The notes under the pieces were generated by a model. It was not told the DNA's origin and did not search any database. It saw only the letters and a program-made list of their open reading frames with translations. The translations under genes and the position numbers were made by a program. From Candidatus Hodarchaeota archaeon (lineage in GTDB: Archaea; Asgardarchaeota; Wukongarchaeia; Wukongarchaeales; Wukongarchaeaceae), in the NCBI GenBank assembly GCA_048886645.1, contig JBHLKN010000016.1, positions 5,904 through 29,903 on the forward strand: a stretch of 24,000 bases of DNA. The letters run 5' to 3'. Shown here in pieces: positions 1,718 through 20,509 of the stretch; the first letter of the stretch is position 1; each line of letters starts with the position of its first letter.

Positions 1718-3003
1718 ATGGGAAAAGATACAAGCTCAATAATGAGTGGTACTACTAAATATTTGATCCGTTCTCGGTTTGAAACTAACGGCATGTGTGA
1801 AAAATCTGATGTAGTTGGCGCTCTTTTTGGCCAAACCGAGACGTGGAACCTCACGATCGGGGTTAAACAGAGGGTCTTTTGGGCCCGGATTTAGAATTGC
1901 GTGAACTACAAAAATCGGGACGGATTGGTAGGATTCAAGTAGAGCTGAAAAGTGAAGGCGGAAAATGCTCCGGACAGATTGTAATTCCAAGCTCTTTAGA
2001 TAAAGTTGAGACAGCCATATTAGCTGGTGCTTTAGAAACAGTTGATCGCATAGGTCCTTGTGAAGCAACTGTTAGAGTTGAAAGGATAGAAGATGTTAGA
2101 GAAGCGAAAAGACGACGAGTAATCGATAGGGCTATTGACTTGATCCGAAACTGGGAGGAAGGAGAAAGTCAAAGTTACTCTGAACTTGCAGAAGAAGTTG
2201 TTAAATCGGTTCGAGGAAGCACTATCAAAAATTACGGTCGCAACGGACTTCCTGGCGGTCCTGATGTGGAAGAAGCTGACAGCATAATAATCGTTGAAGG
2301 AAGAGCGGACGTTGTTAATCTCTTAAAATACGGTATAAGAAACGCTGTAGCAGTAGAAGGCACGAGCATACCAAAGACAATCATCGAGCTATCCAAGTCA
2401 AAAACTGTAACCGCTTTTCTTGACGGTGATCGAGGCGGCGACCTTATTTTAGCCGAACTGTTACAAGTGGCAGATGTTGACTATGTATCAAGAGCTCCCC
2501 CAAGCAAAGAGGTTGAAGAACTTACAAGGAAAGAAGTGATTAAGGCTTTAAGAAACAAGGTACCGGTAGAGCAATTACCAGAAATTCCTCTACAAGCAAG
2601 AAAACCCCAGAAAAAGCATGAAAAGATGAAGATAACAGAAGAAAAAGCCGTAAAAGCTCCTCTGAAAAAGAAAGAAGGAGAAAGGACAGATCTACCCGGA
2701 CCATTAATCGATATTGTTGGGCAAATAGAAGGTACTGGTGAAAGCATTTTACTTGACGAAAACTTCAAAGAAATTTCAAGGATACCAGTAAGAGAATTAG
2801 TTGAAAAAATTCAAAATATAGAGAGAAAAATCCACGCTGTAATTTTTGATGGGGTCATAACACAGCGTATTGTTGACGTAGCTGCTGAAAAAGACATAAG
2901 TATCCTTGTAGGAGGCACAATAGGAGACGTTGTAAAGAAACCGCTCAAACTCCGATTATATTATGCTGATACACCGCCTAAAAGCTTTGAAGATCACGTA
3001 TAA
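1718..3003 (+). CDS. dnaG: Archaeal DnaG-type primase (TOPRIM), reading frame interrupted after codon 41
   Basis: ATG 1718 encodes MGKDTSSIMSGTTKYLIRSRFETNGMCEKSDVVGALFGQTE, which matches the conserved archaeal DnaG N-terminus, then runs to a stop at 1892-1894. A second frame, open from 1867 (track ORF 1879..3003), continues TEGLLGPDLELRELQKSGRIGRI. That frame carries the TOPRIM motifs IIIVEGRADV and FLDGDRGGD. Removing 32 nt (1841-1872) joins the two frames perfectly. Confidence 0.88.
1841..1872 (+). other. 32-nt insertion disrupting dnaG, bounded by imperfect 8-nt direct repeat
   Basis: aaaccgag (1833-1840) and aaacagag (1865-1872) flank 24 nt (acgtggaacctcacgatcggggtt). Because of the repeat, any deletion window starting at 1833-1841 restores ...GQTEGLLGPDLELREL... 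Confidence 0.8.
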
Positions 3004-4191: not shown

Positions 4192-4929
4192 TCACCTGGA
4201 TAAAGGTAAGACAGGTAAAATATTGCTATTTAAAATTTTTTTAGAAGCTTTTAAAGTTCTTTTCGGAATTATACTTCTTTCTACTCCGCTCTTTTTATCT
4301 TCCAAGATTTTTAATGATTTTTCTAAATCTTTTAATGTGTCAATGTCAAGGGTCACGGAAGGATCATCATATTTTCTGAAGGGAACTTTTTCTAAGCGTG
4401 CTTTCTCCTGAAACGCTTTGAAGGATTTTCCACCAAAAACAGGCTCCATAACGTTACAAGGTTTGAACAAAACAGTAGATGTACCGCCATCGTTAGTGGG
4501 GCAAGCTACCACTACTCTTTTATAATTTTTCGCTATTTCCACCAGATCTCTGATATTTTTAATGTTAATAAGGGGTGTATCGCCCATGATAATAATAGAT
4601 TGAGTTGCAGACCTTTTTTTTGCTTCGTTTAATGCTTTCAAAACAGCAGAATTCAGATTCCTTCCATCATCTTTCAACGGCAAAAAATTCCTTTCCTTTG
4701 AAAGATCTAATAATTTATCGTCACTACTACAAACAATGATTAAATCCACAATAGATTGAGTAATAGAGCTTGATAACACGTCTAATATGTCGAGAAACAT
4801 CCCCATTATAAGTTCCTTTACAAGACTTTTATTTTCATACCCAAGCTCTACAGAAAGCCTGCTTTTACCACTATCAAGACTTCTAACCGCAACCGCCGCA
4901 ACTGTAATAGTCTTTTTTCCTGCAATCAA
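4192..4929 (-). CDS. cofC: Probable 2-phospho-L-lactate guanylyltransferase (CofC-like nucleotidyltransferase)
   Basis: N-terminal VAAVAVRSLDSGKSRLS resembles the CofC ...PVK..S.AKSRL motif, and IIIMGDTPLI is a nucleotidyltransferase-like motif. The gene lies 10 nt downstream of cofD on the same strand. TTG start. Confidence 0.65.
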   Translation of the reverse strand: MIAGKKTITVAAVAVRSLDSGKSRLSVELGYENKSLVKELIMGMFLDILDVLSSSITQSIVDLIIVCSSDDKLLDLSKERNFLPLKDDGRNLNSAVLKALNEAKKRSATQSIIIMGDTPLINIKNIRDLVEIAKNYKRVVVACPTNDGGTSTVLFKPCNVMEPVFGGKSFKAFQEKARLEKVPFRKYDDPSVTLDIDTLKDLEKSLKILEDKKSGVERSIIPKRTLKASKKILNSNILPVLPLSR

Positions 4930-4939
4930 TCTAGAATCC

Positions 4940-5875
4940 TCACACTTTTAGCACTGTTTCTGCTAGTTCTTTTTTATCATCAAGCGTCTTCATTATAGTG
5001 TTTACCGAAACAACTTCAATACCAAGCTCTTTTTCAATCCTTTTAACCATATTTTTATCCCTTTCATCTATTATTAAGCAATCTAAAAAAGATTGATAAA
5101 CTTTAGCAACACCTAAGGGGGAAACTTCAAGGTTTAAAAACTGCATAAAAGTTCCAGCAGGACCGCTTAAAGGACTATCTCCTATGATTGGAGACACAGC
5201 AACCACCTTTGCCTTCGTTTTTTCTAAAACCTCCCTAATCTCTTTTACTGCCAATATTGGACCGATACTCGTCACAGGATTGCTTGGACCGATAACAATC
5301 TTTTCAGCACAATTAATTGCTTCTAAAACACCAGGAGCTGATTTAGCGATTTCTGCACCCTTAAAGTCAATATTTAAAACCTTTAAGGATCCTTTTTCAC
5401 GCACCCACCATTCCTGAAAATGCATCCATCCTTTTTCAGTTAAAATCCTTGTTTGGATACTTTGATTACTTGCAGGAAAAATAGAAACTCTCACATTTAA
5501 AATATCACAAATAAACTTACAAGCCTCGCTTAAACGAAACCCTTTTCGTAAAAGATAGGTGCGTAAGAAACAGAAAGAAAGGTCTTTATCTCCAAGTTTA
5601 AACCAAGAATCTTCACCAATCCTCTCAAGATATCGAATAAAGTTAAAAGTATCCCCTTTTATCCCCCACATTTTTTCTCCATCAACAATTCCGGCAATAG
5701 TATACGTAATAACGTCAAGATCAGGCGAAACATAAAGATCGTATATCTCGTAATCATCGCCTACATTACTAATAACCGAAACCTCTTCGGGGCTGATTAA
5801 AGGTAAAACACCTTGGAGTAACTTGGGCGTACCAGTACCGCCAGAAAGAAAAAGTATCATGATTTCTTTCATCAA
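4940..5875 (-). CDS. cofD: 2-phospho-L-lactate transferase (F420 biosynthesis, CofD)
   Basis: N-terminal ILFLSGGTGTPKLLQGV is the signature CofD motif. Length is 311 aa and the gene is adjacent to a cofC-like gene. Confidence 0.88.
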   Translation of the reverse strand: MMKEIMILFLSGGTGTPKLLQGVLPLISPEEVSVISNVGDDYEIYDLYVSPDLDVITYTIAGIVDGEKMWGIKGDTFNFIRYLERIGEDSWFKLGDKDLSFCFLRTYLLRKGFRLSEACKFICDILNVRVSIFPASNQSIQTRILTEKGWMHFQEWWVREKGSLKVLNIDFKGAEIAKSAPGVLEAINCAEKIVIGPSNPVTSIGPILAVKEIREVLEKTKAKVVAVSPIIGDSPLSGPAGTFMQFLNLEVSPLGVAKVYQSFLDCLIIDERDKNMVKRIEKELGIEVVSVNTIMKTLDDKKELAETVLKV

Positions 5876-5879
5876 CCGC

Positions 5880-6455
5880 TCATTTTATAACGTAACGATA
5901 AGCTACTAAAACACCAGCAGTAGGGCTTTTTCTCGTAATCTTCACAACTTCCCCTGCACGCGCCCCTACAGCTCGAGCAACGGGGTCGCTCTCTTTTAGC
6001 ATAGATAACTGATTGACTTGGATTCCATACTCCTTGACTATTTTTTCCACTTCTTCTTTTGGAACTATTTCATGTTGTGGCACTAAATCATGAGCAAAAA
6101 TGTCAAAAAAGGCGTATTCGGCAGGTATAAGTTCAATATTCTCATTTCCTGAAACTTCCTTACGCGTATAGTGCGTATATTTACCCACAGTTAACAAAAA
6201 ACCATGGTCTATCTTTCTTTCTTCCATCGACTTTTGCAATTCCCTAACAAATTTAACACCAATCGTTTTAACCTTGGGCAGCCAAGCAACCACATTAATC
6301 TTCTGCCTTCCCTCTTTTTTCTCCCCTAAAATTTCGATCTTATCTCCCACATCTTCTGCGCTAACCGGGGTGTATCCTCTATTCCTAATAACAGCTTTGA
6401 TGCCCTCCACTAATCTCTCATAAACAGCTTTTTCATCAATAGAACTGATTGTCAC
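5880..6455 (-). CDS. rpoH: RNA polymerase subunit Rpo5/RpoH with a eukaryotic Rpb5-like N-terminal domain (full-length Rpb5 architecture)
   Basis: The C-terminal half, HDLVPQHEIVPKEEVEKIVKEYGIQVNQLSMLKESDPVARAVGARAGEVVKITRKSPTAGVLVAYRYVIK, matches the Rpb5/RpoH core (compare yeast HELVPKH...[36 protein letters not shown]). The N-terminal ~115 aa (IKAVIRNRGY..., IGVKFVRELQKSMEERKIDHGFLLTVGKYT) aligns with the yeast Rpb5 N-domain (VKEMVKDRGY..., [30 protein letters not shown]). GTG start. Confidence 0.85.
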   Translation of the reverse strand: MTISSIDEKAVYERLVEGIKAVIRNRGYTPVSAEDVGDKIEILGEKKEGRQKINVVAWLPKVKTIGVKFVRELQKSMEERKIDHGFLLTVGKYTHYTRKEVSGNENIELIPAEYAFFDIFAHDLVPQHEIVPKEEVEKIVKEYGIQVNQLSMLKESDPVARAVGARAGEVVKITRKSPTAGVLVAYRYVIK

Positions 6456-6656: not shown

Positions 6657-8039
6657 ATGGGTTTTAAAAACAAAGCGGTTTTAACAACAGTCTTATTTCT
6701 CTTCATTATGTTTTCCACATCTTTTTCTCACTCATTATCTAAAATTGAATCTAATCCCACGGAAAGGGAATCAATTTCCGATACCACGATACCTGAACCC
6801 GAAGATATTAAGGTTCTTGTAAATTTTGCTGCAAACGTATCTCAATATATTAACAAAACATCTGCAAGCATATTTTTAGATATGTTAGAAAATGAAACCG
6901 GTTTCGATCTCACAGTTTGGGAGAATGAAACTGTTTTTAGGACAAGTTTTACATCCATTGATTTGCAATTTTATGACGTTTTTATTCTCTTTGTTCACTC
7001 CAATTTGACTTTTACAGAGAATGCAATTAATGCATTGAAAGACTTTGTTAAAGAAGGTAAAACCCTTATGATATGTCATGCTCCAGAAAGTACAAACACC
7101 ACGACCAATATCAACAATGTGATCCAATATTTTGGCTTCAAATTCCTTGAAAATGTAACAGTAATAGATCCAGTAAATTTTGAGGACACAAACACCTCAA
7201 TAATAGCCCCATTCTTCTTAGATCAAATCCCTCAAACCCATGTTTTAAACCAAGAAAACGCCTTCCTAATATACCGTGGCATACCCATAATCACCAACAG
7301 TTCCTTAATAAACTCCACGAAACTTGAAGTAGTTGATCATTATAACTTAACATGGGCAAACGTTACCGCTTTTGCTGATAAAAACAATAACTCAGTAAAA
7401 GATTCAGGAGATATTAATGGAACGGATGTAGTTTTAGGCGTTTGCGCTGAAACAGAAAATCAGGGAAGATTTATAGGAATAGGCTCTGTTGCAATGTTTA
7501 ACAACACCTATACAAATGCCACTGGCAATTTTAGCGCTTATGAAAACCTGATGTTTGCCAATGAAACGATAAAATGGCTTGCAAAACTTACGGGCTTAGT
7601 ACTTTATGAGGATATGACCACAGATAAAGAGAAGATAACTTATGGGGAGCAGGTGAATGTTTCTGTAATAATCGAAGACGAAAACATGGAAGAAATCGTA
7701 GCAATAAACGCAAGCATCATAGTACACAAAATCGCCACAATGAACATAACAATGTTAAATATTAGTAGAACGGGAAAACAGTTCCACGCTGCCTATAACT
7801 CCACAACTTTTGAGGAAGCTGGAACGGTAGAATTTTCGGCAAACAGTTCAAAGGTTCGCGGATACACAAACATCACAACATATCCATGGATCATAGTAGA
7901 CGTTTTCCCAAAAGAAACTCCTCGAACATCTTTAAACTCCACCGCTTTAATACTCATAACCATGGCTACAATAGTAACCCTTGCAGGTCTTGGAGCTTAT
8001 GCCTTTAGAATAGCCCGTCTAAAAAAGCGCGAAAAATAA
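6657..8039 (+). CDS. Secreted, C-terminally membrane-anchored, heavily N-glycosylatable surface protein
   Basis: N-terminal signal-like segment AVLTTVLFLFIMFSTSFS. There are 26 N-X-S/T sequons by hand count in 460 aa. The C-terminal TM helix ALILITMATIVTLAGLGAYAF is followed by the basic tail RIARLKKREK. The segment YDVFILFVHSNLTFTENAINALKDFVKEGKTLMICHA looks like a ThuA/DUF4350-type flavodoxin-like module (weak). Confidence 0.75.
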   Translation: MGFKNKAVLTTVLFLFIMFSTSFSHSLSKIESNPTERESISDTTIPEPEDIKVLVNFAANVSQYINKTSASIFLDMLENETGFDLTVWENETVFRTSFTSIDLQFYDVFILFVHSNLTFTENAINALKDFVKEGKTLMICHAPESTNTTTNINNVIQYFGFKFLENVTVIDPVNFEDTNTSIIAPFFLDQIPQTHVLNQENAFLIYRGIPIITNSSLINSTKLEVVDHYNLTWANVTAFADKNNNSVKDSGDINGTDVVLGVCAETENQGRFIGIGSVAMFNNTYTNATGNFSAYENLMFANETIKWLAKLTGLVLYEDMTTDKEKITYGEQVNVSVIIEDENMEEIVAINASIIVHKIATMNITMLNISRTGKQFHAAYNSTTFEEAGTVEFSANSSKVRGYTNITTYPWIIVDVFPKETPRTSLNSTALILITMATIVTLAGLGAYAFRIARLKKREK

Positions 8040-10600: not shown

Positions 10601-10678
10601 GGGCCCGTAGCTCAGTTTGGATGGAGCACCAGCTTGCGGAGCTGGGGGTCGCGGGTTCAAATCCCGTCGGGCCCGCCA
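10601..10678 (+). tRNA. tRNA-Arg (anticodon GCG), CCA encoded, no intron
   Basis: Manual cloverleaf: acceptor GGGCCCG/CGGGCCC, D arm GCTC-AGTTTGGATG-GAGC, anticodon arm CCAGC-TTGCGGA-GCTGG, variable GGGTC, T arm GCGGG-TTCAAAT-CCCGT, discriminator G, then CCA. Confidence 0.93.
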
Positions 10679-10805: not shown

Positions 10806-12407
10806 TTGAGGACGAGAGATGGTCGCAATGGCGAAGTTGTTCATTGTGCTTTTTGTGGTGATGCATTTTCTATAGATCTTCTGCTTTTTTGCAGAAGTTG
10901 TGGCGCGATTATCTGTTGTAAATGCTTGAAAAGGGATTATTTCAAAGCGTTTTTCTGTAGTTATTGTTCTGCCCTCGTCCCAGAAGAGACTATTTTCTGC
11001 CCTGTTTGTAGACGTAGAAGTGAAAAAAAACAGGGAAATACCACCATCAGGATGTGTCCTAGTTGTCTTTCTAGAGATATCCATCCGGTAATCGAGGAAA
11101 GAAAATTTTTAGTTATTTCCTTCCGTGACCTAGTATTAAAGTTGAGACATGAGTTTACAAATATAGCAGACTTTGTTTCAGTCTTTAACTCTGTTATAAA
11201 TCGGGGAATTTTACTGCGTAAAAATAACTTTTTACACTATCCGATTATTGAACGGTCATTGAACGATATCCATAAAGGTTTTCCGACTTGCTTAAAAGAA
11301 CTTGAAGAAGTAACCACTTATACGGCAAGAAGCCTCGCGCAACATGTTCTCGCCTTCTCCCGACCTACCCAAATGAGTCCCCTTGATCTAAAAGCTAATT
11401 TTACAGTTCGAAAAACATTATCAGACGAAGTAGAAGTTTTTGAAAATCTAGTCTCGCGAAAATTAGGCTTTTTTTCCGATCGTTTAAAACAGGCTGAAAG
11501 ATCTGTGAAAAGGATGGAAAAAACAAAGACTGTTTTTGATAAATTATCAAGGTTCATCGAGATAATGCCAGGTGAATCGCCTGTTTACATATATCGATAT
11601 AAAAAAATTGCTAACACTCCAAGAAACATCAATCTAAAAAAAGGCAGAGGATATATTATTTTAACAGATCAACGAATAATTTTTGTGCCCCTAAAAGGGA
11701 TAAATCTCAAAACTGGAGAGAAAAGCCAGACTGATTCATCAAACTTTTACGCTTTAGATCTTGAAAAAACTCACATGATAGACGTGACAAAACACTTTTT
11801 TTCACGTAAAAAAGTGATTTTTAGGACCGAGGAAGGCGAGTACGTGTTTTTATTTTCTACAAGAGAAGTTGGTAGACTTAAAGACGCTTTCAAGTTTTCT
11901 AAGAAATATCATGATTACACTTCCAAAAATAGTTCTTTTCTCGAACAATTAGCCCGTGATAAAATAAATATAGACCCCTTCAAAAAGAGAATTGAAAAAT
12001 ACATCGATCATATTCTTTTCCCGCTTGGTTTAAGCCAAAAACAAATCTTCGGAGATATTAAAGACGATTATTACCCGTTTGATTTCGTTGATTTTTCAGA
12101 TATAACCCATTTGGAAAATAATTATCACGCGATTATCAAAGTTTTAAACAAACTGGATGAAAAATTTCAAAGAGGCGAAATAAACAGCCCCGAATATATG
12201 CGTCAAATGAATTATTATAGAAATCTTTTAGAAAGTAATTATTACGGGATTATCAAAGTGTTAAACGCTCTCCATGATAGATTTGAAAGAGGTGAAATAA
12301 ACGGCCCTGAATATATGCGGAACATCAAACATTATAATCAGCAAAAGTTTATTATTAGAAGAGAATTAGAACGTAGAAAAGCACGCTTTGGGAGTCCATT
12401 CGCATAA
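10806..12407 (+). CDS. Multidomain protein: N-terminal FYVE/PHD-spaced Cys8 zinc finger plus an extra zinc ribbon, helical linker, GRAM/GLUE-like PH domain, two SHOCT-like C-terminal repeats
   Basis: CAFCGDAFSIDLLLFCRSCGAIICCKC...CSYC has FYVE spacing (compare EEA1 [28 protein letters not shown]...CDAC) but lacks the basic RRHH motif. Further CPVC...CPSC follows. KGRGYIILTDQRIIFVP ... KKVIFRTEEGEYVFLFSTREVGRLKDAFKF fits the GRAM/PH pattern. The 40-aa repeats IIKVLNKLDEKFQRGEINSPEYMRQ and IIKVLNALHDRFERGEINGPEYMRN are SHOCT-like. TTG start. Confidence 0.8.
   Translation: MRTRDGRNGEVVHCAFCGDAFSIDLLLFCRSCGAIICCKCLKRDYFKAFFCSYCSALVPEETIFCPVCRRRSEKKQGNTTIRMCPSCLSRDIHPVIEERKFLVISFRDLVLKLRHEFTNIADFVSVFNSVINRGILLRKNNFLHYPIIERSLNDIHKGFPTCLKELEEVTTYTARSLAQHVLAFSRPTQMSPLDLKANFTVRKTLSDEVEVFENLVSRKLGFFSDRLKQAERSVKRMEKTKTVFDKLSRFIEIMPGESPVYIYRYKKIANTPRNINLKKGRGYIILTDQRIIFVPLKGINLKTGEKSQTDSSNFYALDLEKTHMIDVTKHFFSRKKVIFRTEEGEYVFLFSTREVGRLKDAFKFSKKYHDYTSKNSSFLEQLARDKINIDPFKKRIEKYIDHILFPLGLSQKQIFGDIKDDYYPFDFVDFSDITHLENNYHAIIKVLNKLDEKFQRGEINSPEYMRQMNYYRNLLESNYYGIIKVLNALHDRFERGEINGPEYMRNIKHYNQQKFIIRRELERRKARFGSPFA
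12117..12356 (+). repeat. Intragenic 120-nt (40-codon) tandem duplication encoding the two SHOCT-like modules
   Basis: NNYHAIIKVLNKLDEKFQRGEINSPEYMRQMNYYRNLLES is followed by NYYGIIKVLNALHDRFERGEINGPEYMRNIKHYNQQKFII. The similarity is also visible at the DNA level (attatcaaagt[t/g]ttaaac..., agaggcgaaataaacagccccgaatatatgcg versus agaggtgaaataaacggccctgaatatatgcg). Confidence 0.85.
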
Positions 12408-12607
12408 GAATTTAAAAGTAAAAGTTAACAAACAAGATGTTTATCGCCCTTACCCTACCCGGCTCATATAAAACTCCGCTAATAGGCATCTATAGCAATT
12501 TATTCCTTCCCTTCCCTAAATGAGCCTAGTTACAGTATTAAAATAAAAAAATGTTTTCGACTTTTATTCGGCGTTTTTGAATTTTATACTTTTTTGTTTA
12601 GGATTTT

Positions 12608-13300
12608 TTATTGGGAAGACGATTCTAATTGTTTTTTTAGAAGTTTTAGCTCCTTTTCTACTTCTGCTTCTTCTGCTTCCAGTTTTTCTTTGTCTACTAC
12701 ACGGGTTTCTTTTGGTCTTTCTACGGAGGTTCTGGATACGGGTTCAGTAGTTACTGCTTCTGCTCCCACAAGTTGCTTTTCCATAGCGGCGATCTCTGCA
12801 TCAATAGCGTCTTCTATTTCTAGCTCAAGTTCTGCTTCGGCAGAAGTAACATCAGCAAGGGCTTCATCAGCCATAGAAGCCCTTTCCATCCCCTCTTCAA
12901 GACGTACCATAAGTTCTTCTGTTACTTCCGGTCCCACTTCCCTCAAACCCTCATTTATAACTATATCTGCCTCTCTGAGAGCGCCACTAAGCTCAATATT
13001 ATCTTTCACAGTTTCGATGGTCTCTATTATACGATTCATGTTAAGGATTTTATTCTCTGTACTTTCAAGCTTCTTAAGGTAAAGCTGTCTCCTCAATAAA
13101 GATTTTTTTGCTCCCATCTTATTGCCATCACGAAGCATTTCCATAGCTAACGAACGTTGTTCATCCGCTTTACGCCTTATGGCCCTTGATTTAAGTTCAA
13201 AACGATTTATAACAGCCCTAAGCTTAGCTATGGTTTCTGATGGTTTTCTTCTTTTATCCCCAAAGAGAAAATTCTTAATGCCCATTATCAAAATCTCCAT
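12608..13300 (-). CDS. ESCRT-III protein, Snf7 family (Vps20/32/60 = CHMP4-7-like)
   Basis: The N-terminus MGIKNFLFGDKRRKPSETIAKLR resembles CHMP6/Snf7 N-termini. A basic helical hairpin (RKADEQRSLAMEMLRDGNKMGAKKSLLRRQLYLKKLE) is followed by an acidic C-terminal half and the terminal amphipathic helix EKELKLLKKQLE. ATG at 13300 or 13285. Confidence 0.85.
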   Translation of the reverse strand: MEILIMGIKNFLFGDKRRKPSETIAKLRAVINRFELKSRAIRRKADEQRSLAMEMLRDGNKMGAKKSLLRRQLYLKKLESTENKILNMNRIIETIETVKDNIELSGALREADIVINEGLREVGPEVTEELMVRLEEGMERASMADEALADVTSAEAELELEIEDAIDAEIAAMEKQLVGAEAVTTEPVSRTSVERPKETRVVDKEKLEAEEAEVEKELKLLKKQLESSSQ

Positions 13301-13417
13301 CTAAAAAATACTGAAGACAAACAACAATCACTTAAACTATTTTTTTATTAGTCTTAAGGATTATTTTTCCTAATGTATTAAAGATAGCTGTAACTAAAAA
13401 GGGTTTCTATTTTTCTA

Positions 13418-16141
13418 TTATGTTCTTCCTTCAATTACTCTTTTTAATTCAGAAACAACAGAAAGATTCGGAGGACTTATCGTAAATACAATTTCAAGAC
13501 CATCCTCTAAAAGAGCAAAAATAATCCCAAGTTTCATCCCTCCTCTGTCAAAAATAACCGTAGGAAACTTCTCATCTTCCTGGATCTTTACTATTTTCCA
13601 CTCAACGTCCCTAATGCGTGAAATAACAATAGAGGCACTATTTGACCCTGTTAAACCTAATTTTATCGAGGAAACCTCGTAAGGTAGAATCCTACCGTCC
13701 TTGCTTTTTGCCACGGCGTCGGTAAAATGGGGATACAAAAGTTTACGTTTTAAAAAATCTTTAAGGAGACTTTTCGGCACATCACTCGGAGATATAATTG
13801 AAATCCCTCTCATAACATCAGTCTCATCCTCCACCATAACCTTTACTTCACTAGGAGGAGTAGGAGCTTCAACATCAATATCGACCATACCCTCTTCCTC
13901 TAGAACTTCGGAAACAAGTTCCAGAACCTCTTCAATGGGGGATGGTTCGGGTTTTTCCTCCATCTTCGGCCTGGCTTCTCTCCCAGCATGCATAGAAGAC
14001 CTAGCCCTTATCGCTACAACAATCGCCCTATCCGACTCTTTATCAGAAACTATGGCGACTCCTACCGGGAGTCTTCTTACAAAATCCGCGCTTTTTAACT
14101 CATCAGGTATAGGGGAAGGCGCACGTTTTATATACGCTTTCACATCATCTTCATAGGTTAAAGTGTGCACAATCATTAAATCCGCTTGGGATAATACCCT
14201 TGGATCTGTTGCACTTGGTTGTTGAGTACAAACTAACAAGGCGCAACCTGGTTTCCGTCCTTGTTTCGCATATTCAACTATGGGTATGCTTGCTGCTGTT
14301 TCCTTTCTTGAAGGTACAAGAAGGTGTGCTTCATCTATCGCAAGCCAAGTAAAAGGTATTTCCTCCCTTCTCATCTCTTGGACTTCTTTCCCCACCTCTA
14401 CTAACATTTCTTCTGTTTCCTCATACCTTGCAGCTTTTGTCCTCTCTCTAAGGATTTTACGCGCTAGTATACCCACAAAAAGTGCACGCAAACCCTCCCC
14501 TAACCTCGGATGGCTGACATCAATAACCGTTACCTGATTTGGAACGCTCAACTCTGTTAAAGGCGTGCCCACTTCAGCAAAAACCCCCCACTTTTTCGCA
14601 GAATTAAGCCTTGCAACCGCCGCTCTCTGCGTAGTTCTTGAAAATCCTACAGTCTTTGACGATATATCAACATCCCTTTCAATACACCTTGTTAAGTCAT
14701 CAATAGTGAAGTTTTCCTTCCCTTCAACCGCTACTTGTTCGCCTTCTTCAAATTCAGCTATATAGCCTTTCTTCGCTTTATCTATAGCTTGAGCTATAAG
14801 CAGTCCTTGGGGTCCAAACCTATCAATCCCAAAAGAGTGGCACCAATCATCAACTGAAAGCTCAGAAGCAGATATTGAAAACCTAGCGTCCCAACTTTCA
14901 GGGGGAAAATCAGAAGCAAGCTCTATCGGCACATACACCTTAGTATTCGGGTAACCCTTGGGTCTCATACCCCACTTTTCAAGGATCTCGATCTCTTTCT
15001 TCTCAACATTGCAATGTTTCATAGAATAAAAAACGCCTAGAGGATCAATTACTATGATTCCTATACCCAGATTCGATCGCGCTAACTCTTCAGCCAAAAC
15101 CCCCATCGTATAACTCTTACCACTACCCCTATGACCGCAAATAAAAACAACGTACGGAAAACCAGCGTTAATAACAACAGACTTTCCATAAATCTCTTCC
15201 ATCTCCCCGACATCGCTTGTTTTCATACCCTTTTCTGCAACCCTCCCTATGAAAAGGGCTCCTTTACATCCTACACCTTTCTTTACTTTAAACTTTTTAC
15301 CTAAAACCACTGCATCTTTTAACGGCGTATACCTCGGCTTTGAAGGAGCTTTTACGAGATACTTCCTTTCCTCAAGCAGTTTCGACCAATAACTATCCAA
15401 TCCTTCGCTAACCAGAAGCTCCCCTTCTACCGCTCCAAAACCCCACCTTAACCACTCAACTTCCTCCTTCCCTTCCATTCTTTTCGCTATCTCGTTCCTT
15501 GAAACAATCTCTGCGGGATAAAATTTCGGATCACAACCACTAACGTCCCATAAAATAATGTCTAACTTCACGTTTAAATCTTTAAAAGCTCCCTCATTAT
15601 CGCCCTTATTAAGCGAAGCGAGCGAACTATAAGCTTTTTCTAAAAGATCTTTCTCCTGGGTTACAATATAGAGGGCGCATAGACCCCTAACCTTATTTTC
15701 CCCTTCTAATCCTTCAGTGATTTTCTGGGCTATAGCCAAATCTTCTTCTTTTTCTGTTAAAAGATAGGAAAAAGATAAACCCATAACTGCTGGCCAATCC
15801 TTTCCTTCTTTACGGAAAAACTCTGAAGCGTTTTCAAAAATTTCTTTTTGAACCTCCACAACTTCCCTTGCATAAAATAAAGCTCTTAAAGAATGGGCGG
15901 AAAAAAGCTCTAAATCATCCCCTTCTTCTGTAAAGAAGCTTCCATCTGCTTCCTGCCGTGTTAAAAGCCCAAATACTACCTCTTGCATTCTTGCTTTAAT
16001 CCATTCCTCTCCAGTAACTTTGTAAGCATGAAATAACGCTTCAAAAAAAGAAGGACGAACCCTCTCTTCCACTCGATCCAATCTCTCTAAACTCTCAGTG
16101 AGGGGTGGAAGTATCTGACATAAAGGCCTTCCTATCTCCAA
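13418..16141 (-). CDS. 907-aa HerA/FtsK-superfamily (COG0433/DUF87-like) P-loop ATPase with novel N- and C-terminal domains
   Basis: Walker A FICGHRGSGKSYTMG (about 15113-15136) and Walker B FTWLAIDEAHLLVP. HerA-type distal motifs are KQGRKPGCALLVCTQQPSATDPRVLSQADLMIVHTL and RARSSMHAG. The N-terminal ~290 aa are helical repeats (one QEADGSFF terpenoid-cyclase/prenyltransferase-like turn). An acidic linker precedes a ~130-aa alpha/beta C-terminal domain. TTG start (uncertain). Confidence 0.85.
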   Translation of the reverse strand: MEIGRPLCQILPPLTESLERLDRVEERVRPSFFEALFHAYKVTGEEWIKARMQEVVFGLLTRQEADGSFFTEEGDDLELFSAHSLRALFYAREVVEVQKEIFENASEFFRKEGKDWPAVMGLSFSYLLTEKEEDLAIAQKITEGLEGENKVRGLCALYIVTQEKDLLEKAYSSLASLNKGDNEGAFKDLNVKLDIILWDVSGCDPKFYPAEIVSRNEIAKRMEGKEEVEWLRWGFGAVEGELLVSEGLDSYWSKLLEERKYLVKAPSKPRYTPLKDAVVLGKKFKVKKGVGCKGALFIGRVAEKGMKTSDVGEMEEIYGKSVVINAGFPYVVFICGHRGSGKSYTMGVLAEELARSNLGIGIIVIDPLGVFYSMKHCNVEKKEIEILEKWGMRPKGYPNTKVYVPIELASDFPPESWDARFSISASELSVDDWCHSFGIDRFGPQGLLIAQAIDKAKKGYIAEFEEGEQVAVEGKENFTIDDLTRCIERDVDISSKTVGFSRTTQRAAVARLNSAKKWGVFAEVGTPLTELSVPNQVTVIDVSHPRLGEGLRALFVGILARKILRERTKAARYEETEEMLVEVGKEVQEMRREEIPFTWLAIDEAHLLVPSRKETAASIPIVEYAKQGRKPGCALLVCTQQPSATDPRVLSQADLMIVHTLTYEDDVKAYIKRAPSPIPDELKSADFVRRLPVGVAIVSDKESDRAIVVAIRARSSMHAGREARPKMEEKPEPSPIEEVLELVSEVLEEEGMVDIDVEAPTPPSEVKVMVEDETDVMRGISIISPSDVPKSLLKDFLKRKLLYPHFTDAVAKSKDGRILPYEVSSIKLGLTGSNSASIVISRIRDVEWKIVKIQEDEKFPTVIFDRGGMKLGIIFALLEDGLEIVFTISPPNLSVVSELKRVIEGRT

Positions 16142-16251
16142 AAGCCTAACACTCCTATAAAACCAAATAAACCCTAAAAGGCGTTAAGTGATGCCTACTA
16201 TTCTATTCAATGTATAAGGAGAAAAGAGGTTAATAGAACTTTATTAAAGTT

Positions 16252-16872
16252 TCAACTCTCCTCTTCGCGTAAACGTTCTAATTCTTCCTTAATCTCTTTC
16301 TCCCTTGCTGATGGGGTAGGAAGACCGTGTTCTGTAGTTACGCTTACAACCGCCCCTGCTTCCCCAAGAATTCTTGTAACTTCTGCATCGTCAATATCCG
16401 CACTTAAAGCTCCTTCAAGTTCCACATCAATAGCTTCTGTTGAAACTTCAATACCAGTAAGACCTTCTTCTAAAGCATCTATATATCTACTTAGTTGGGG
16501 AAGTCTAAGCGAACGGTTAAGTTGCCTAAGAGATATAGCCAAACCCTTCATATCTTTTGCAAGACTCTGAACAGCCTCCGTATGCTCCATCTTAGCAATA
16601 ATTCCCTTAAGCCTAGAATTCAACCTCGCACAACCCAAAGCAAAACGCCTACTCCTTACAACGTCTTGAGCATAGACTTTCGCAGCCTCCATGTCCCCCT
16701 GTTCTACAGACCTCCTAACCTCTTTCATCATCTTATTCTCGTCCTTCTTCAACTTCATGCGTTGCCTTTCAATCCTACGTTCTATCAACCTAAGGCGAAT
16801 AATCCAATCACGAGTACTACGACCACCCATCAACCAATTAACAAACTTACCGAAAACCAATGAAATCACCAA
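16252..16872 (-). CDS. ESCRT-III protein, Vps2/24/46 (CHMP1-3-like) family
   Basis: IERRIERQRMKLKKDENKMMKEVRRSVEQGDMEAAKVYAQDVVRSRRFALGCARLNSRLKGI matches the CHMP2/Vps2 alpha1-alpha2 hairpin pattern. The C-terminal half is acidic and ends in EIKEELERLREEES (MIM1-like). Hydrophobic N-terminus SLVFGKFVNWL. Start is TTG 16872, GTG 16869 or ATG 16830. Confidence 0.85.
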   Translation of the reverse strand: MVISLVFGKFVNWLMGGRSTRDWIIRLRLIERRIERQRMKLKKDENKMMKEVRRSVEQGDMEAAKVYAQDVVRSRRFALGCARLNSRLKGIIAKMEHTEAVQSLAKDMKGLAISLRQLNRSLRLPQLSRYIDALEEGLTGIEVSTEAIDVELEGALSADIDDAEVTRILGEAGAVVSVTTEHGLPTPSAREKEIKEELERLREEES

Positions 16873-16942
16873 CTATTCTTATAATATTAATATTGTTTAA
16901 AATATATTAAGGATTACCGTTCCTAAAAATATCTTTAATCTA

Positions 16943-17641
16943 TCATATTTTTAAAGCTTTTATAATCTCTGAGGGAAAACCTTTTTGCGTAATCTTTTCA
17001 AAGTTAACAATCTTGAAACCTACATACTCCACAAAGGGTTTTACTTGAACTGAACGACAACCACCTATTGTGTGAGGGAAAAACCGGTATAAAAGGGACC
17101 AAAAAGCGTTGAAGATAGGATTTCCACAAGTCATGTTCACTAAAACCATGCGCCCTCCTTTTCTCATAACCCGATTAAACTCTCGTAAAATAGGGAAAAA
17201 ATCCTTTACAGGGATTAAATCAAGCATATAGCTATTAATAACAACATCAAAAGCTTCATCTGTAAAAGGAAGACTACGAGCATCTGCCATCAAAAACTCA
17301 TAACTCTCCCTTGCAGCATCCTTCACTCTTTTCTTAGACATTCTAAGCATTTTACCCGAAATATCAACTCCTACATTCAATCCTTCTTCATTCATTTTCA
17401 AAATTTCAGAAAAATTCTTACCAGTGCCACAAGCCACTTCCAAAACCTTTTCCCTCCCTTTAATTTCAACTAAAGAGAGAGCCCTACTATGAGCCTTTGA
17501 TTCCGCAAACCGGCTCCAAAAATCGTAATGAGGCGCAAGGATATCGTAAGTCCGGGCAACCTCTTTTTTTGAAACTTTTGCTTTAAGCATATAAGACACC
17601 TCTTTTAACACAATATCTATATTCGTAATATGATGATTCAT
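16943..17641 (-). CDS. Class I SAM-dependent methyltransferase (UbiE/Methyltransf_11-like)
   Basis: Motif I VLEVACGTGKN, post-I GVDISGKML and motif II/III FDVVINSYML ... GGRMVLVN. The gene is co-oriented with and immediately upstream of the ESCRT-III / ATPase / ESCRT-III string. Confidence 0.82.
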   Translation of the reverse strand: MNHHITNIDIVLKEVSYMLKAKVSKKEVARTYDILAPHYDFWSRFAESKAHSRALSLVEIKGREKVLEVACGTGKNFSEILKMNEEGLNVGVDISGKMLRMSKKRVKDAARESYEFLMADARSLPFTDEAFDVVINSYMLDLIPVKDFFPILREFNRVMRKGGRMVLVNMTCGNPIFNAFWSLLYRFFPHTIGGCRSVQVKPFVEYVGFKIVNFEKITQKGFPSEIIKALKI

Positions 17642-17713
17642 TTTTTTTACATTTAATTTTTATAAAATATTGAACTAATATGTAAATAATAAGTTAATTC
17701 TTTCTATCAGTTT

Positions 17714-18880
17714 GTGATAGCAATGTCAAAAGGTCGTCAGAAAGAGCTTTCAGCCATGCAGGAGCTTCATCAATATGTCATTTCTTATGCTAAGAAAGCT
17801 ATTGAGCACGAGAAGAAAGGTCAGAAAAAAGCGGCTTTAGACAACTATATTAAAGCTGTGGAAATTCTTAATAAGATGATTAGGTGGGCTCCAACGCCTG
17901 AGCAAAAAGAGGCTTACTATAAAAAAGCTAAGACATATCTTTCTAGGGCTTGGGAGATTAGAAAGGAGCTGAAAGCGCCTAGAGGAGAGATAAGTGCGGA
18001 AAAAGGAGAGTTAAGTGCTGCTATTCAAGATGCTATAATCACGGAAAGGCCTACGATAAAGTGGGATGATGTTGCTGATTTAGAGTCTGCTAAGCAAGCT
18101 TTAAGAGAGGCGATAATCCTCCCGTTATTACGCCCTGATCTATTTAAAGGGGCTCGTAAACCTTGGAAGGGCGTCTTATTATTTGGACCACCGGGTTGCG
18201 GTAAAACCCTCTTAGCTAAGGCGGTTGCTTCCGAATGTGATGCCACTTTTTTTAATGTTAGTGCCGCTACTTTAGTTTCAAAGTGGTTAGGGGAGTCTGA
18301 GAAGCTTGTAAGGGAACTTTTCAAGTTTTCAAGAGAAAAACAGCCTTCAATAGTTTTCTTTGACGAAGTTGATGCTATAGCTACTACGAGGGGAGGGACA
18401 GAACACGATGCCATTAGGCGGGTGAAACTTCAATTAATGCAAGAAATGCAAGGGTTGATGTCTGATAGCGAGCAGATGGTCGTAATTGGGACGACTAATA
18501 TTCCCTGGCATATTGATCCTGCCTTTAGGCGTAGGTTTGAAAGGCGGATTCTAGTTCCCCTTCCTGGAAAGGAGGCAAGGGAACAGATTTTCAAGATTCA
18601 TACCAGGGATGTAGAATTGGATGAAAGCGTAGACTTTAGCCTTCTTTCAGAGATAACTGAAGGGTTTTCTGGGGCAGATATTGAAATAGTTTGCCGAGAA
18701 GCGATTATGAATCCTGTAAGAGAAATGGATAAAAGCGGTCTATTGAAGGATAAAGAAGCAAAAATAAGACCTGTTACAATTGGAGATTTCGAAAAAGCTC
18801 TTCAAAAAATAAAACCCACAGTAGCCCCAGAAGAACTCCTTGCCTACGAAGAATGGCAACAAGAATTTGGAAGCGTTTGA
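17714..18880 (+). CDS. vps4: Vps4-type AAA+ ATPase (N-terminal MIT domain + single AAA cassette)
   Basis: MIT-like three-helix region AKKAIEHEKKGQKKAALDNYIKAVEILNKMI...YYKKAKTYLSRAWEIRKEL. Walker A GPPGCGKT, Walker B IVFFDEVD and SRH/arginine fingers TNIPWHIDPAFRRRFERRI. The likely start is ATG 17723 (the track ORF begins at GTG 17714). Confidence 0.94.
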   Translation: MIAMSKGRQKELSAMQELHQYVISYAKKAIEHEKKGQKKAALDNYIKAVEILNKMIRWAPTPEQKEAYYKKAKTYLSRAWEIRKELKAPRGEISAEKGELSAAIQDAIITERPTIKWDDVADLESAKQALREAIILPLLRPDLFKGARKPWKGVLLFGPPGCGKTLLAKAVASECDATFFNVSAATLVSKWLGESEKLVRELFKFSREKQPSIVFFDEVDAIATTRGGTEHDAIRRVKLQLMQEMQGLMSDSEQMVVIGTTNIPWHIDPAFRRRFERRILVPLPGKEAREQIFKIHTRDVELDESVDFSLLSEITEGFSGADIEIVCREAIMNPVREMDKSGLLKDKEAKIRPVTIGDFEKALQKIKPTVAPEELLAYEEWQQEFGSV

Positions 18881-18883
18881 ATT

Positions 18884-19618
18884 TTGAGAAAGAGAAAAAC
18901 AGGAATATTGAAAAAGTGGCATGAAATAGCTGAAAAATTTGCAAAGGAAACAGATGTCCAATTAGAAGATCGCATTATTTTTTCATGGGATAATTTCAAA
19001 GAAAGGATTCTTTCTTTGAAAAATCGTTTGGGGTTTAGTGGTGAAACTTTAGACTTTTTGGGCTATTCGGTTGATCTAAACACTGGGGGCGTAGTTGACC
19101 GTTTACTTGACTATACCTTGGATAAAAATCCTTTTGTCAGTTATCTGGCTTATTATTCTGAATCTTTTGAGACTGTTTTGGATGAGGATAGGTGGATTAA
19201 GTTCCGGCATTTGCCTGGCGGTGTATCGTTTGAAAATGCTTTTAGGGTTCAGGTTGAGGGATGGATTTTAAACCGTTTTTTAGAAGATGATGAAGACATT
19301 TTGAGAGATGAGAAGATAGCAGAAAAGGCTTTAGTTTTAATCGGGGCTAAGCGTGAGAAGTTTGGCGATTTTTCCTTTTCTATTAACACCTTGCCCCGTG
19401 TAACGCTTGCCGTTGTTTATAATGAAGGTGTTGAAGAGTTTGAGCCAAATGTTTCGGTTTTTTTTAAAGAATCTGCTCAATATTACCAGCCTACCGAGCT
19501 TCTAGCTCACCATGGAGTACTGCCTATGGTTGCTTTTGAACGGGCTAGAAGAGCGGTTTTAGGCTTTGAAGAAAGCGGTTTGCCGCAGTTTATTAGTAAA
19601 TATTTACGGTTTGATTAA
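18884..19618 (+). CDS. Uncharacterised protein, DUF3786-like by motif pattern; starts 4 nt after the vps4 stop
   Basis: 244 aa with a TTG start 4 nt after the vps4 stop codon. WIKFRHLPGGVSFENAF and FGDFSFSINTLPRVTLAVVYNEGVEEFEPNVSVFFKESAQYYQPTELLA recall the DUF3786 pattern (..W.GDEEF....lFD.sa..yl.tEdl), recalled from memory. The basic N-terminal helix is MRKRKTGILKKWHEIAEKFAK. Confidence 0.6.
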   Translation: MRKRKTGILKKWHEIAEKFAKETDVQLEDRIIFSWDNFKERILSLKNRLGFSGETLDFLGYSVDLNTGGVVDRLLDYTLDKNPFVSYLAYYSESFETVLDEDRWIKFRHLPGGVSFENAFRVQVEGWILNRFLEDDEDILRDEKIAEKALVLIGAKREKFGDFSFSINTLPRVTLAVVYNEGVEEFEPNVSVFFKESAQYYQPTELLAHHGVLPMVAFERARRAVLGFEESGLPQFISKYLRFD

Positions 19619-19750
19619 AACGCAAAAAAAGGGATAAGCAGGAAATTGAGAAGGTGGTTTTTTTGTGGATTTATTTAAGTATGAGGGGGAGTATATAATT
19701 AATATATGAGTTCTATTAAACTGGTAAGATTTTTGAAGGTGTAGCGTGGT

Positions 19751-20509
19751 ATGGAAAGAGTGGAGGAAAAGGATGAGAAGGTTAAAAAGAAAGAAGAGGA
19801 TGTTGAGGAGGAAGAAGAAGAAGAGCTTGGAGAACTTGATGAATTGTTAAGTGAACTGGAAGTTGAGCTTGAGAGTTTAGAAAGCGTTGAAGCCCCTTCT
19901 ATTGAGGAGGAAGTTGTTGAGGAAATTGTCGTAGTGGAGCGTCCTCCTGTTGTAGAGGAAAAGGAAAGGGAGGAAAGGCGTGTTTCTGAGGCTATTAAAG
20001 AGATATTGCCTCCTTGGATTGATAAGCCTTGGATGTATATAAAGCCTGAAAAAGCCGATCATTTAGAGAGTTGGTTGAATGATTGGGGGGATTTTTTGGT
20101 TGATTTGTGTCGGGTGATGGTTAAGCATGTAGTTAATTTAATGCATTTGAGGTCTAGGTTTCCGTTTAAAAATCCAATTTGTAAGAAAAATCTTACTCTT
20201 AATCATATGCAGGATGTTGGGGAGTATTTGGTGTCTAGTGAGAGGGCTGCTTGGTGGGATTCGGGGAGGCTAAGGTTGCGGGTTTATTGGATGGCTCTTG
20301 AGGAGTGGGCGGAGGAAATCTTTCAGTGGGCTTTTGAGCGTGGTGAAACAGTGGTCACGTTTTTTGATCTTGTTAACGCAGGGGAACGTTGGAGTTCATT
20401 GCCTCCAAGAGATTTGAAAGCTGTTTGTGAGATTTTAGTAAAAAAAGGACAAGCTCGCTGGCTTGATGATAAGAAGAAGTCGTTAGAGTTTAGGTTTTTC
20501 GATGTATAA
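19751..20509 (+). CDS. vps25: ESCRT-II subunit Vps25 (EAP20) homolog with ~80-aa polyacidic N-terminal extension
   Basis: FKNPICKKNLTLNHMQDVGEYLVSSERAAWWDSGRLRLRVYWMALEEWAEEIFQWAFERGETVVTFFDLVNAGE...LKAVCEILVKKGQARWLDDKKKSLEFRFF aligns with human VPS25. The human sequence is FNNVKLQRKLPVESIQIVLEELRKKGNLEWLDKSKSSFLIMWRRPEEWGKLIYQWVSRSGQNNSVFTLYELTNGE...LRALQALQQEHKAEII..GRGVKFF. LPPWIDKPWMY sits where the eukaryotic PPxF/Y motifs lie. Confidence 0.85.
   Translation: MERVEEKDEKVKKKEEDVEEEEEEELGELDELLSELEVELESLESVEAPSIEEEVVEEIVVVERPPVVEEKEREERRVSEAIKEILPPWIDKPWMYIKPEKADHLESWLNDWGDFLVDLCRVMVKHVVNLMHLRSRFPFKNPICKKNLTLNHMQDVGEYLVSSERAAWWDSGRLRLRVYWMALEEWAEEIFQWAFERGETVVTFFDLVNAGERWSSLPPRDLKAVCEILVKKGQARWLDDKKKSLEFRFFDV

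Follow-up and report, generated by a model that had tools for sequence, protein, structure and literature searches.

The primase gene dnaG of a wukongarchaeal genome is interrupted by 32 nucleotides (nt) that very probably constitute a mini-intron, removed from the mRNA by the enzymes that splice tRNA. The gene lies in a 24,000-nt stretch of the assembly GCA_048886645.1 (Candidatus Hodarchaeota archaeon; Asgardarchaeota, Wukongarchaeia; contig JBHLKN010000016.1, positions 5,904 to 29,903 of the forward strand), hereafter called the window, and all positions are counted from its first letter. The ends of the insert coincide with a motif of the bulge–helix–bulge (BHB) type, the substrate structure of the archaeal splicing endonuclease EndA. 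From the split of the gene, this motif and its covariation, the recurrence of similar inserts in other genomes, the selection acting on the two exons and the enzyme genes found in the genome, we infer that cleavage and ligation take place within the cell.

An interrupted dnaG gene

Translation from ATG 1718 yields the N-terminus of DnaG (MGKDT...VVGALFGQTE), followed by unrelated residues and a stop at 1892-1894. A second frame, open from 1867, reads TEGLLGPDLELRELQKSGRIGRI..., extends over 378 codons including the Toprim domain and ends at 3003. Positions 1867-1894 are shared by both frames; the dnaG sequence is interrupted between ...ALFGQ and TEGLLGPD..., with an offset of 32 nt. The original prediction that dnaG is split by 32 nt is thus borne out by both frames, as well as by four independent assemblies (see below). 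The predicted structure of the gene is as follows.

1680-1707, + strand: likely expression signals of exon 1, as read from the sequence (A/T-rich, TATA-like tttaaaaa at 1680-1687; GGAGG at 1703-1707)
1718-1834, + strand: dnaG exon 1, 39 codons, MGKDT...VVGALFGQ
1835-1866, + strand: predicted intron, 32 nt, the only one of nine strict BHB candidates in the segment that restores GQTEGLLG
1867-3003, + strand: dnaG exon 2, TEGLLGPDLELRELQ..., Toprim domain, stop codon TAA at 3001-3003

Removal of the predicted intron would give a product of 417 amino acids (aa), whereas translation of the unspliced RNA would yield only a 58-aa peptide. The ribosome-binding motif GGAGG is located 10 nt upstream of ATG 1718, and the same caggaggattcataatcATG is retained at loci L194 and L195. 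No further lesion was found across the 417 codons, and the genome holds only one dnaG match. Compared with the related genome G001, exon 1 shows five synonymous and one non-synonymous codon differences, and the first 230 codons of the body show 37 and 12, respectively. This substitution pattern indicates that both exons are under purifying selection, in agreement with the earlier remark that the rest of the reading frame shows no decay. The closest database proteins, with 90-98% identity, carry the name DNA primase DnaG [Candidatus Wukongarchaeota archaeon], and all those at least 90% identical are truncated gene calls of 363-376 aa. No homing-endonuclease gene stands beside dnaG, the neighbours being GAPDH and an M24 peptidase.

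A bulge–helix–bulge motif at the predicted exon junctions

The sequence around the insert can be folded into the elements listed here, all on the + strand; helix lengths are in base pairs (bp).

1823-1827, + strand: outer helix, 5' strand CUUUU, pairing with 1869-1873 after a U1828/C1868 mismatch
1829-1832, + strand: central 4-bp helix, 5' strand GGCC (Gly codon and the C of the Gln codon), partner 1861-1864
1833-1835, + strand: 5' bulge AAA, unpaired in minimum-energy folds; predicted cut 1834/1835
1836-1860, + strand: inner helix, CCGA 1836-1839 with UCGG 1857-1860, then a 5-bp hairpin 1842-1846/1851-1855 with loop AACC
1861-1864, + strand: central helix, 3' strand GGUU, partner GGCC 1829-1832
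1865-1867, + strand: 3' bulge AAA, paired with U1826-U1828 in the unconstrained fold; predicted cut 1866/1867
1869-1873, + strand: outer helix, 3' strand AGAGG, weak, 5 bp in the window

The central helix is made of the pairs G1829-U1864, G1830-U1863, C1831-G1862 and C1832-G1861, and minimum-energy folds show the 5' AAA bulge, this helix and the inner hairpin. The cut sites were placed between the second and third residues of each bulge, following the rule given for cbf5 introns (PMC2738675). Applied here, the rule removes 1835-1866 and joins GGC CAA to ACA GAG GGU, that is GQ|TEG. It had been suggested at the outset that a BHB or intron search be run on this site; the strict motif that such a search returned places the intron at 1835-1866 and restores GQTEGLLG. 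A related claim, that excision windows starting anywhere from 1833 to 1841 are equivalent, holds at the protein level, the Thr codon being ACC or ACA, but the geometry of the BHB motif selects 1835-1866.

The imperfect 8-nt repeat noticed earlier around the insert is indeed present (aaaccgag 1833-1840 and aaacagag 1865-1872). Most of it is explained by the BHB motif, in which a palindromic central helix, GGCC/GGUU, has an AAA bulge after each strand; it does not represent a target-site duplication. In Rfam, no match was obtained at the insert site, the only hit being the tRNA at 10601. A permissive scorer, which tolerated a single mismatch, gave credit for the outer helix and took every result that stayed in frame, returned many spurious long 'introns' and was superseded by a strict filter demanding a mismatch-free 4-bp helix, 3-nt bulges and at least three inner pairs, together with restoration of the protein consensus.

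Recurrence in Asgard archaea

A comparison with orthologous loci had also been proposed. The junctions were retrieved from a search of 400 genomes of the phylum, followed by 61 genomes drawn from its largest family. Inserts of 28-40 nt were found at 53 loci in 50 Asgard genomes, within the same 13-nt stretch of dnaG. The carriers belong to five GTDB families.

f1, the window's own family: 2 carrier genomes
f7: 3 carrier genomes
f27: 1 carrier genome
f12, metagenome-assembled genomes labelled Thorarchaeota and Hermod (Thor/Hermod family): 16 carrier genomes
f9, a large family in which most proteins bear the label Lokiarchaeota or Promethearchaeota (Loki family): 28 carrier genomes

Within the genus of the window, the same 32-nt insert is present in four independent assemblies, namely that of the window, G001, Logan SRR10836660 and ENA ERZ27275891. 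Of 80 loci from a broad range of archaea (Archaeoglobi, Thermococci, Thermoplasmata, methanogens, DPANN, Bathyarchaeia, Methanomethylicia and further groups), 78 hold a continuous gene, and both split loci are Asgard. Continuous dnaG genes also occur in many other Asgard families, including Odin, Atabey, Hel and a family with closed genomes of 4.4 Mb and 6.0 Mb.

A strict BHB candidate restores the consensus at 44 of the 53 insert-bearing loci, and nine fail the filter. Those inspected by eye show one deviation each: a G/A mismatch within the central helix at L014 and L017, from one genus of f7, and an inner helix broken off after one or two pairs at L131, L133 and L140, from genera of the Loki family. 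At one of these loci (L131, G293:C378), the intron measures 30 nt, a multiple of three; it contains an in-frame TAA and would still need removal.

Covariation of the paired strands

The alignment comprised 20 distinct sequences whose intron occupies the same position as in the window. Pairing is 100% throughout these sequences for both the central and the inner helix, and the first three inner-helix pairs each combine complete pairing with changes on both sides. Double-sided changes affect four pairs and 15 cells of the alignment, and the observed score was matched by none of 500 shuffles; when the partner strand was slid by one to three columns as a control, pairing dropped to 28-49%. The third central pair is the most telling, being C-G in 10 sequences, U-G in four, A-U in three, G-C in two and U-A in one. 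It joins the third, synonymous position of the Gly codon to a base of the intron, and the two covary (GGA/U, GGG/C, GGC/G, GGU/A). The insert of G001 carries three substitutions relative to the window: one converts an A-U pair into G-U and the other two fall at unpaired positions, so that pairing is kept.

A second predicted intron position in the Thor/Hermod family

The inserts of the Thor/Hermod family, 28-31 nt long, are located 13 nt downstream of the window's position. Their motif comprises a central helix GCCU/GGG(U/C), the bulges ACA and AAU/AUU, and a 9-bp inner hairpin; pairing reaches 96.6%, three pairs have changed on both sides and the score was reached by none of 500 shuffles. When the cut rule is applied without reference to the protein, the junction becomes TEGL|LGED, which is the pan-archaeal consensus TEGLLGED. 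A junction guessed from the reading frames alone, TEG|VIGED, was wrong. The same rule thus regenerates the consensus at two sites 13 nt apart, which means that structure alone predicts the right protein.

Gain and loss of the predicted intron

The presence or absence of the intron needs eight changes of state when mapped on a tree of 62 DnaG sequences, and well-supported branches force at least six of them. Among the Loki-family genomes, the 28 verified carriers are intermixed with about 25 intron-less genomes, even within two genera. Carrier introns of this family share the sequence GAUAA...GCC-loop-GGC...AUC, and for this reason the pattern suggests a single origin followed by repeated precise loss. 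Within single genera of the family, L134, L135 and L140 have the intron, whereas L137-L139, L142 and L146 do not, the loss being precise down to the codon. Introns of different families have only the motif in common, so that common descent and repeated gain at a favourable site are inseparable between families, and either may apply.

Splicing enzymes and other predicted introns of the genome

The genome contains two genes with an EndA domain (PF01974), in open frames of 203 and 241 aa, and one RtcB. The two EndA paralogues are consistent with the (alpha-beta)2 type; Asgard EndA has been reported to be of this type and to carry a broad-specificity L1 loop (PMC5829648). ARAGORN called 33 tRNA genes in the whole genome, 28 of them with introns, several at odd positions. 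This set is incomplete, and further interrupted tRNA genes are therefore probably hidden. Heavily interrupted tRNA genes in Asgard archaea are described in a 2026 preprint (bioRxiv 10.64898/2026.10.13.758758), in agreement with the tRNA introns seen here. The cbf5 gene of the window's genome is uninterrupted. A genome-wide test, in which open frames were merged across 644,288 strict BHB-like sites, gave equal results for true cuts and cuts shifted by 1-2 nt (e.g. 723 versus 706-737 clusters); it is uninformative because ordinary gene boundaries swamp the signal.

Weighing the evidence

Several observations weigh against splicing. The first concerns the fold. The unconstrained structure of the window's site (-24.2 kcal/mol) pairs the 3' AAA with the U-run, the best structure with both bulges open reaches -19.6 kcal/mol, and the whole fold is no more stable than that of shuffled sequence (z = -1.5 and -0.9). 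Because the 3' AAA prefers the U-run, the motif must be regarded as relaxed at the 3' site, and an enzyme of broad specificity would be required. Similarly, the outer helix is 62% paired across lineages and shows no covariation, and in the window it competes with the pairing between U-run and AAA; the motif is thus relaxed on its outer side, a trait shared by most cbf5 introns. Finally, a full-length spliced DnaG was not found among the database proteins at least 90% identical.

The original prediction had listed a small mRNA intron, a transposon footprint, recoding and an artefact without ranking them. The evidence supports the first of these and speaks against the other three. An explanation outside that list, a split gene that functions without splicing, is in our view very unlikely. 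Under this explanation an N-terminal peptide and a separately started body, for example from TTG 1879, would associate, or the body alone would work. Gene callers do annotate the body only (363-376 aa), and the TTG exists. However, the remaining three assemblies from this genus read CTA or TTA in place of TTG 1879, so there is no conserved internal start, and GGAGG precedes exon 1 and not the body. A split gene would also leave unexplained why a precise BHB motif with compensatory changes is maintained and why the consensus is regenerated at two positions.

Recoding, to which we give hardly any credence, could take the form of a -1 frameshift in the overlap of the two frames at 1867-1894, or of a ribosomal hop from GAG 1838-1840 to GAG 1870-1872, similar to that in gene 60 of phage T4. 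The overlap itself favours the former. As for the latter, a hairpin is enclosed by two identical GAG codons spaced 32 nt from each other, and the window thus resembles gene 60 in having a short non-coding gap in an essential gene, flanked by matched codons, a likeness confined to the window. Yet a frameshift in the overlap would disrupt the invariant GQTEGLLG with some 10 foreign residues, and no slippery site of the type X XXY YYZ was found in 1867-1894. In the Loki family, moreover, the exon-1 frame stops two codons past GQ (AGA TAA), and a stop directly before TEG closes the body frame; as no overlap exists between them, frameshifting is impossible in this family. Bypassing is contradicted by the absence of matched take-off and landing codons in most relatives and, unlike in gene 60, by the absence of a stop after the take-off codon. 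It predicts no covariation of a BHB motif, and neither form of recoding accounts for the covariation between the Gly codon and the 3' end of the intron.

A dead or dying dnaG, in which the insert is the excision footprint of a mobile element with its target duplication, appears highly improbable. The imperfect 8-nt repeat around the insert is what such an event would leave, but in other lineages this repeat is reduced to the AAA bulges, both exons are under purifying selection with no other lesion in 417 codons, the gene is the sole dnaG match of its genome, and inserts are retained in 50 genomes of five families. An assembly or sequencing artefact, conceivable in a fragmented metagenome bin of 143 contigs and 87% completeness, can be practically dismissed, as the insert recurs with few substitutions in G001, in the Logan SRR10836660 contig and in ENA ERZ27275891.

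Proposed mechanism and possible role

Removal of the dnaG mini-intron may be envisaged as follows. A single pre-mRNA would be transcribed from a promoter upstream of 1718. In this transcript, GGCC of exon 1 would pair with GGUU at the 3' end of the intron, leaving an AAA bulge after each strand, and the inner intron hairpin would stack on the central helix. The splicing endonuclease would then cut at 1834/1835 and 1866/1867 and release 1835-1866, RtcB would ligate the exons, and the ribosome would read a continuous DnaG of 417 aa containing the universal GQTEGLLG motif.

The intron probably behaves as a neutral passenger subject to gain and loss, and a regulatory role is possible. One specific version of such a role, which we regard as unlikely, is a splicing-dependent switch, an Asgard counterpart of HAC1/XBP1-type splicing. 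Since DnaG belongs to the archaeal RNA exosome as one of its subunits, RNA processing by EndA and RtcB would in this case gate the production of the full-length protein. If true, the switch would explain why two introns have settled no more than 13 nt apart near the start of one gene. In a broader version, endonuclease-spliced mRNA introns would be common in Asgard archaea, and ribosomes would have to be kept off unspliced mRNA.

Other genes of the window

Homologues of CofC and CofD (F420 biosynthesis) lie side by side downstream of dnaG (4192-5875, - strand). Beyond them, the window contains an ESCRT-like cluster typical of Asgard archaea (10806-20509) and several other genes.

5880-6455, - strand: RNA polymerase Rpb5/RpoH C-terminal domain preceded in the same protein by an Mrr-like restriction-endonuclease fold, so that the architecture is that of a long, eukaryote-like Rpb5
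6657-8039, + strand: match to the N-terminal domain of eukaryotic OST48 (oligosaccharyltransferase subunit), 460 aa; Pfam score 47.9 against a cut-off of 36 bits
8877-10214, + strand: TnpB/IS605 OrfB-type gene with a Cas12f1-like TNB domain, just upstream of tRNA-Arg(GCG)
10601-10678, + strand: tRNA-Arg(GCG), intron-less
10806-12407: weak match to the Vps23 core, 533 aa
12608-13300 and 16252-16872, - strand: two Snf7/ESCRT-III genes
13418-16141, - strand: HerA-like (DUF87) ATPase, 907 aa, between the Snf7 genes
17714-18880: Vps4, with MIT and AAA domains
19751-20509: ESCRT-II subunit

Relation to known systems and significance

The dnaG insert is most likely a pre-mRNA BHB intron of the cbf5 type in a further gene. 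The crenarchaeal cbf5 pre-mRNA intron was reportedly described by Watanabe in 2002 and by Yoshinari in 2006. In Desulfurococcales and Sulfolobales, cbf5 introns are 16-44 nt long and have a relaxed BHB motif (Yokobori 2009, PMC2738675); they are cut between the second and third bulge residues and need a hetero-oligomeric EndA (PMC2738675). The dnaG introns resemble them in their shortness (28-40 nt), their location in a housekeeping coding sequence, their relaxed motif and cut rule, the type of EndA, and a patchy distribution that implies gain and loss. In contrast to cbf5, the gene is dnaG, which encodes an exosome and primase protein, and the phylum is Asgard; there are two insertion points, which are 13 nt apart and belong to different families, the presence of the intron varies within genera, and splicing of dnaG is predicted here from sequence.

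With the BHB introns of archaeal tRNA and rRNA, the dnaG introns share the 3-nt bulges, the 4-bp helix and presumably the same EndA and RtcB. They differ in that the substrate is an mRNA without a tRNA body, with an outer helix that is coding and weak; the substrate being an mRNA, splicing decides the reading frame. HAC1 and XBP1 transcripts contain a short mRNA intron that is removed independently of the spliceosome, through cleavage by IRE1 at paired stem-loops and ligation by RtcB or Trl1, with a change of frame. The combination of a protein endonuclease, RtcB-type ligation and an altered frame makes this a mechanistic analogy to dnaG, without homology of the introns; the HAC1/XBP1 system is stress-regulated and uses IRE1, whereas the predicted nuclease of dnaG is EndA. 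The HAC1/XBP1 pathway is named in PMC13149111.

In the literature searched, EndA-dependent introns in archaeal protein genes are confirmed for cbf5 only, and up to 2025 cbf5 is the sole pre-mRNA case cited in reviews and structural papers (including PMC5829648 and PMC2738675). A literature search combining dnaG with the BHB motif returned nothing relevant.

The findings have practical consequences. In the Wukong and Loki-family matches examined, gene callers wrongly annotate dnaG without its N-terminus, an error that touches marker-gene sets and protein databases and affects genomes labelled Loki-, Thor- and Wukongarchaeota. The dnaG junction also offers a clean, testable 61-nt substrate for the recognition of relaxed motifs by Asgard EndA, and the mixed genera of the Loki family are suitable material to study the loss of BHB introns. 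If our interpretation is true, dnaG would be the second gene family with such introns, in the archaeal group closest to eukaryotes, and spliceosome-independent mRNA splicing would be more than a crenarchaeal oddity. Essential genes could then rely on tRNA-splicing enzymes, and BHB introns of mRNA would come and go over short times, within genera too.
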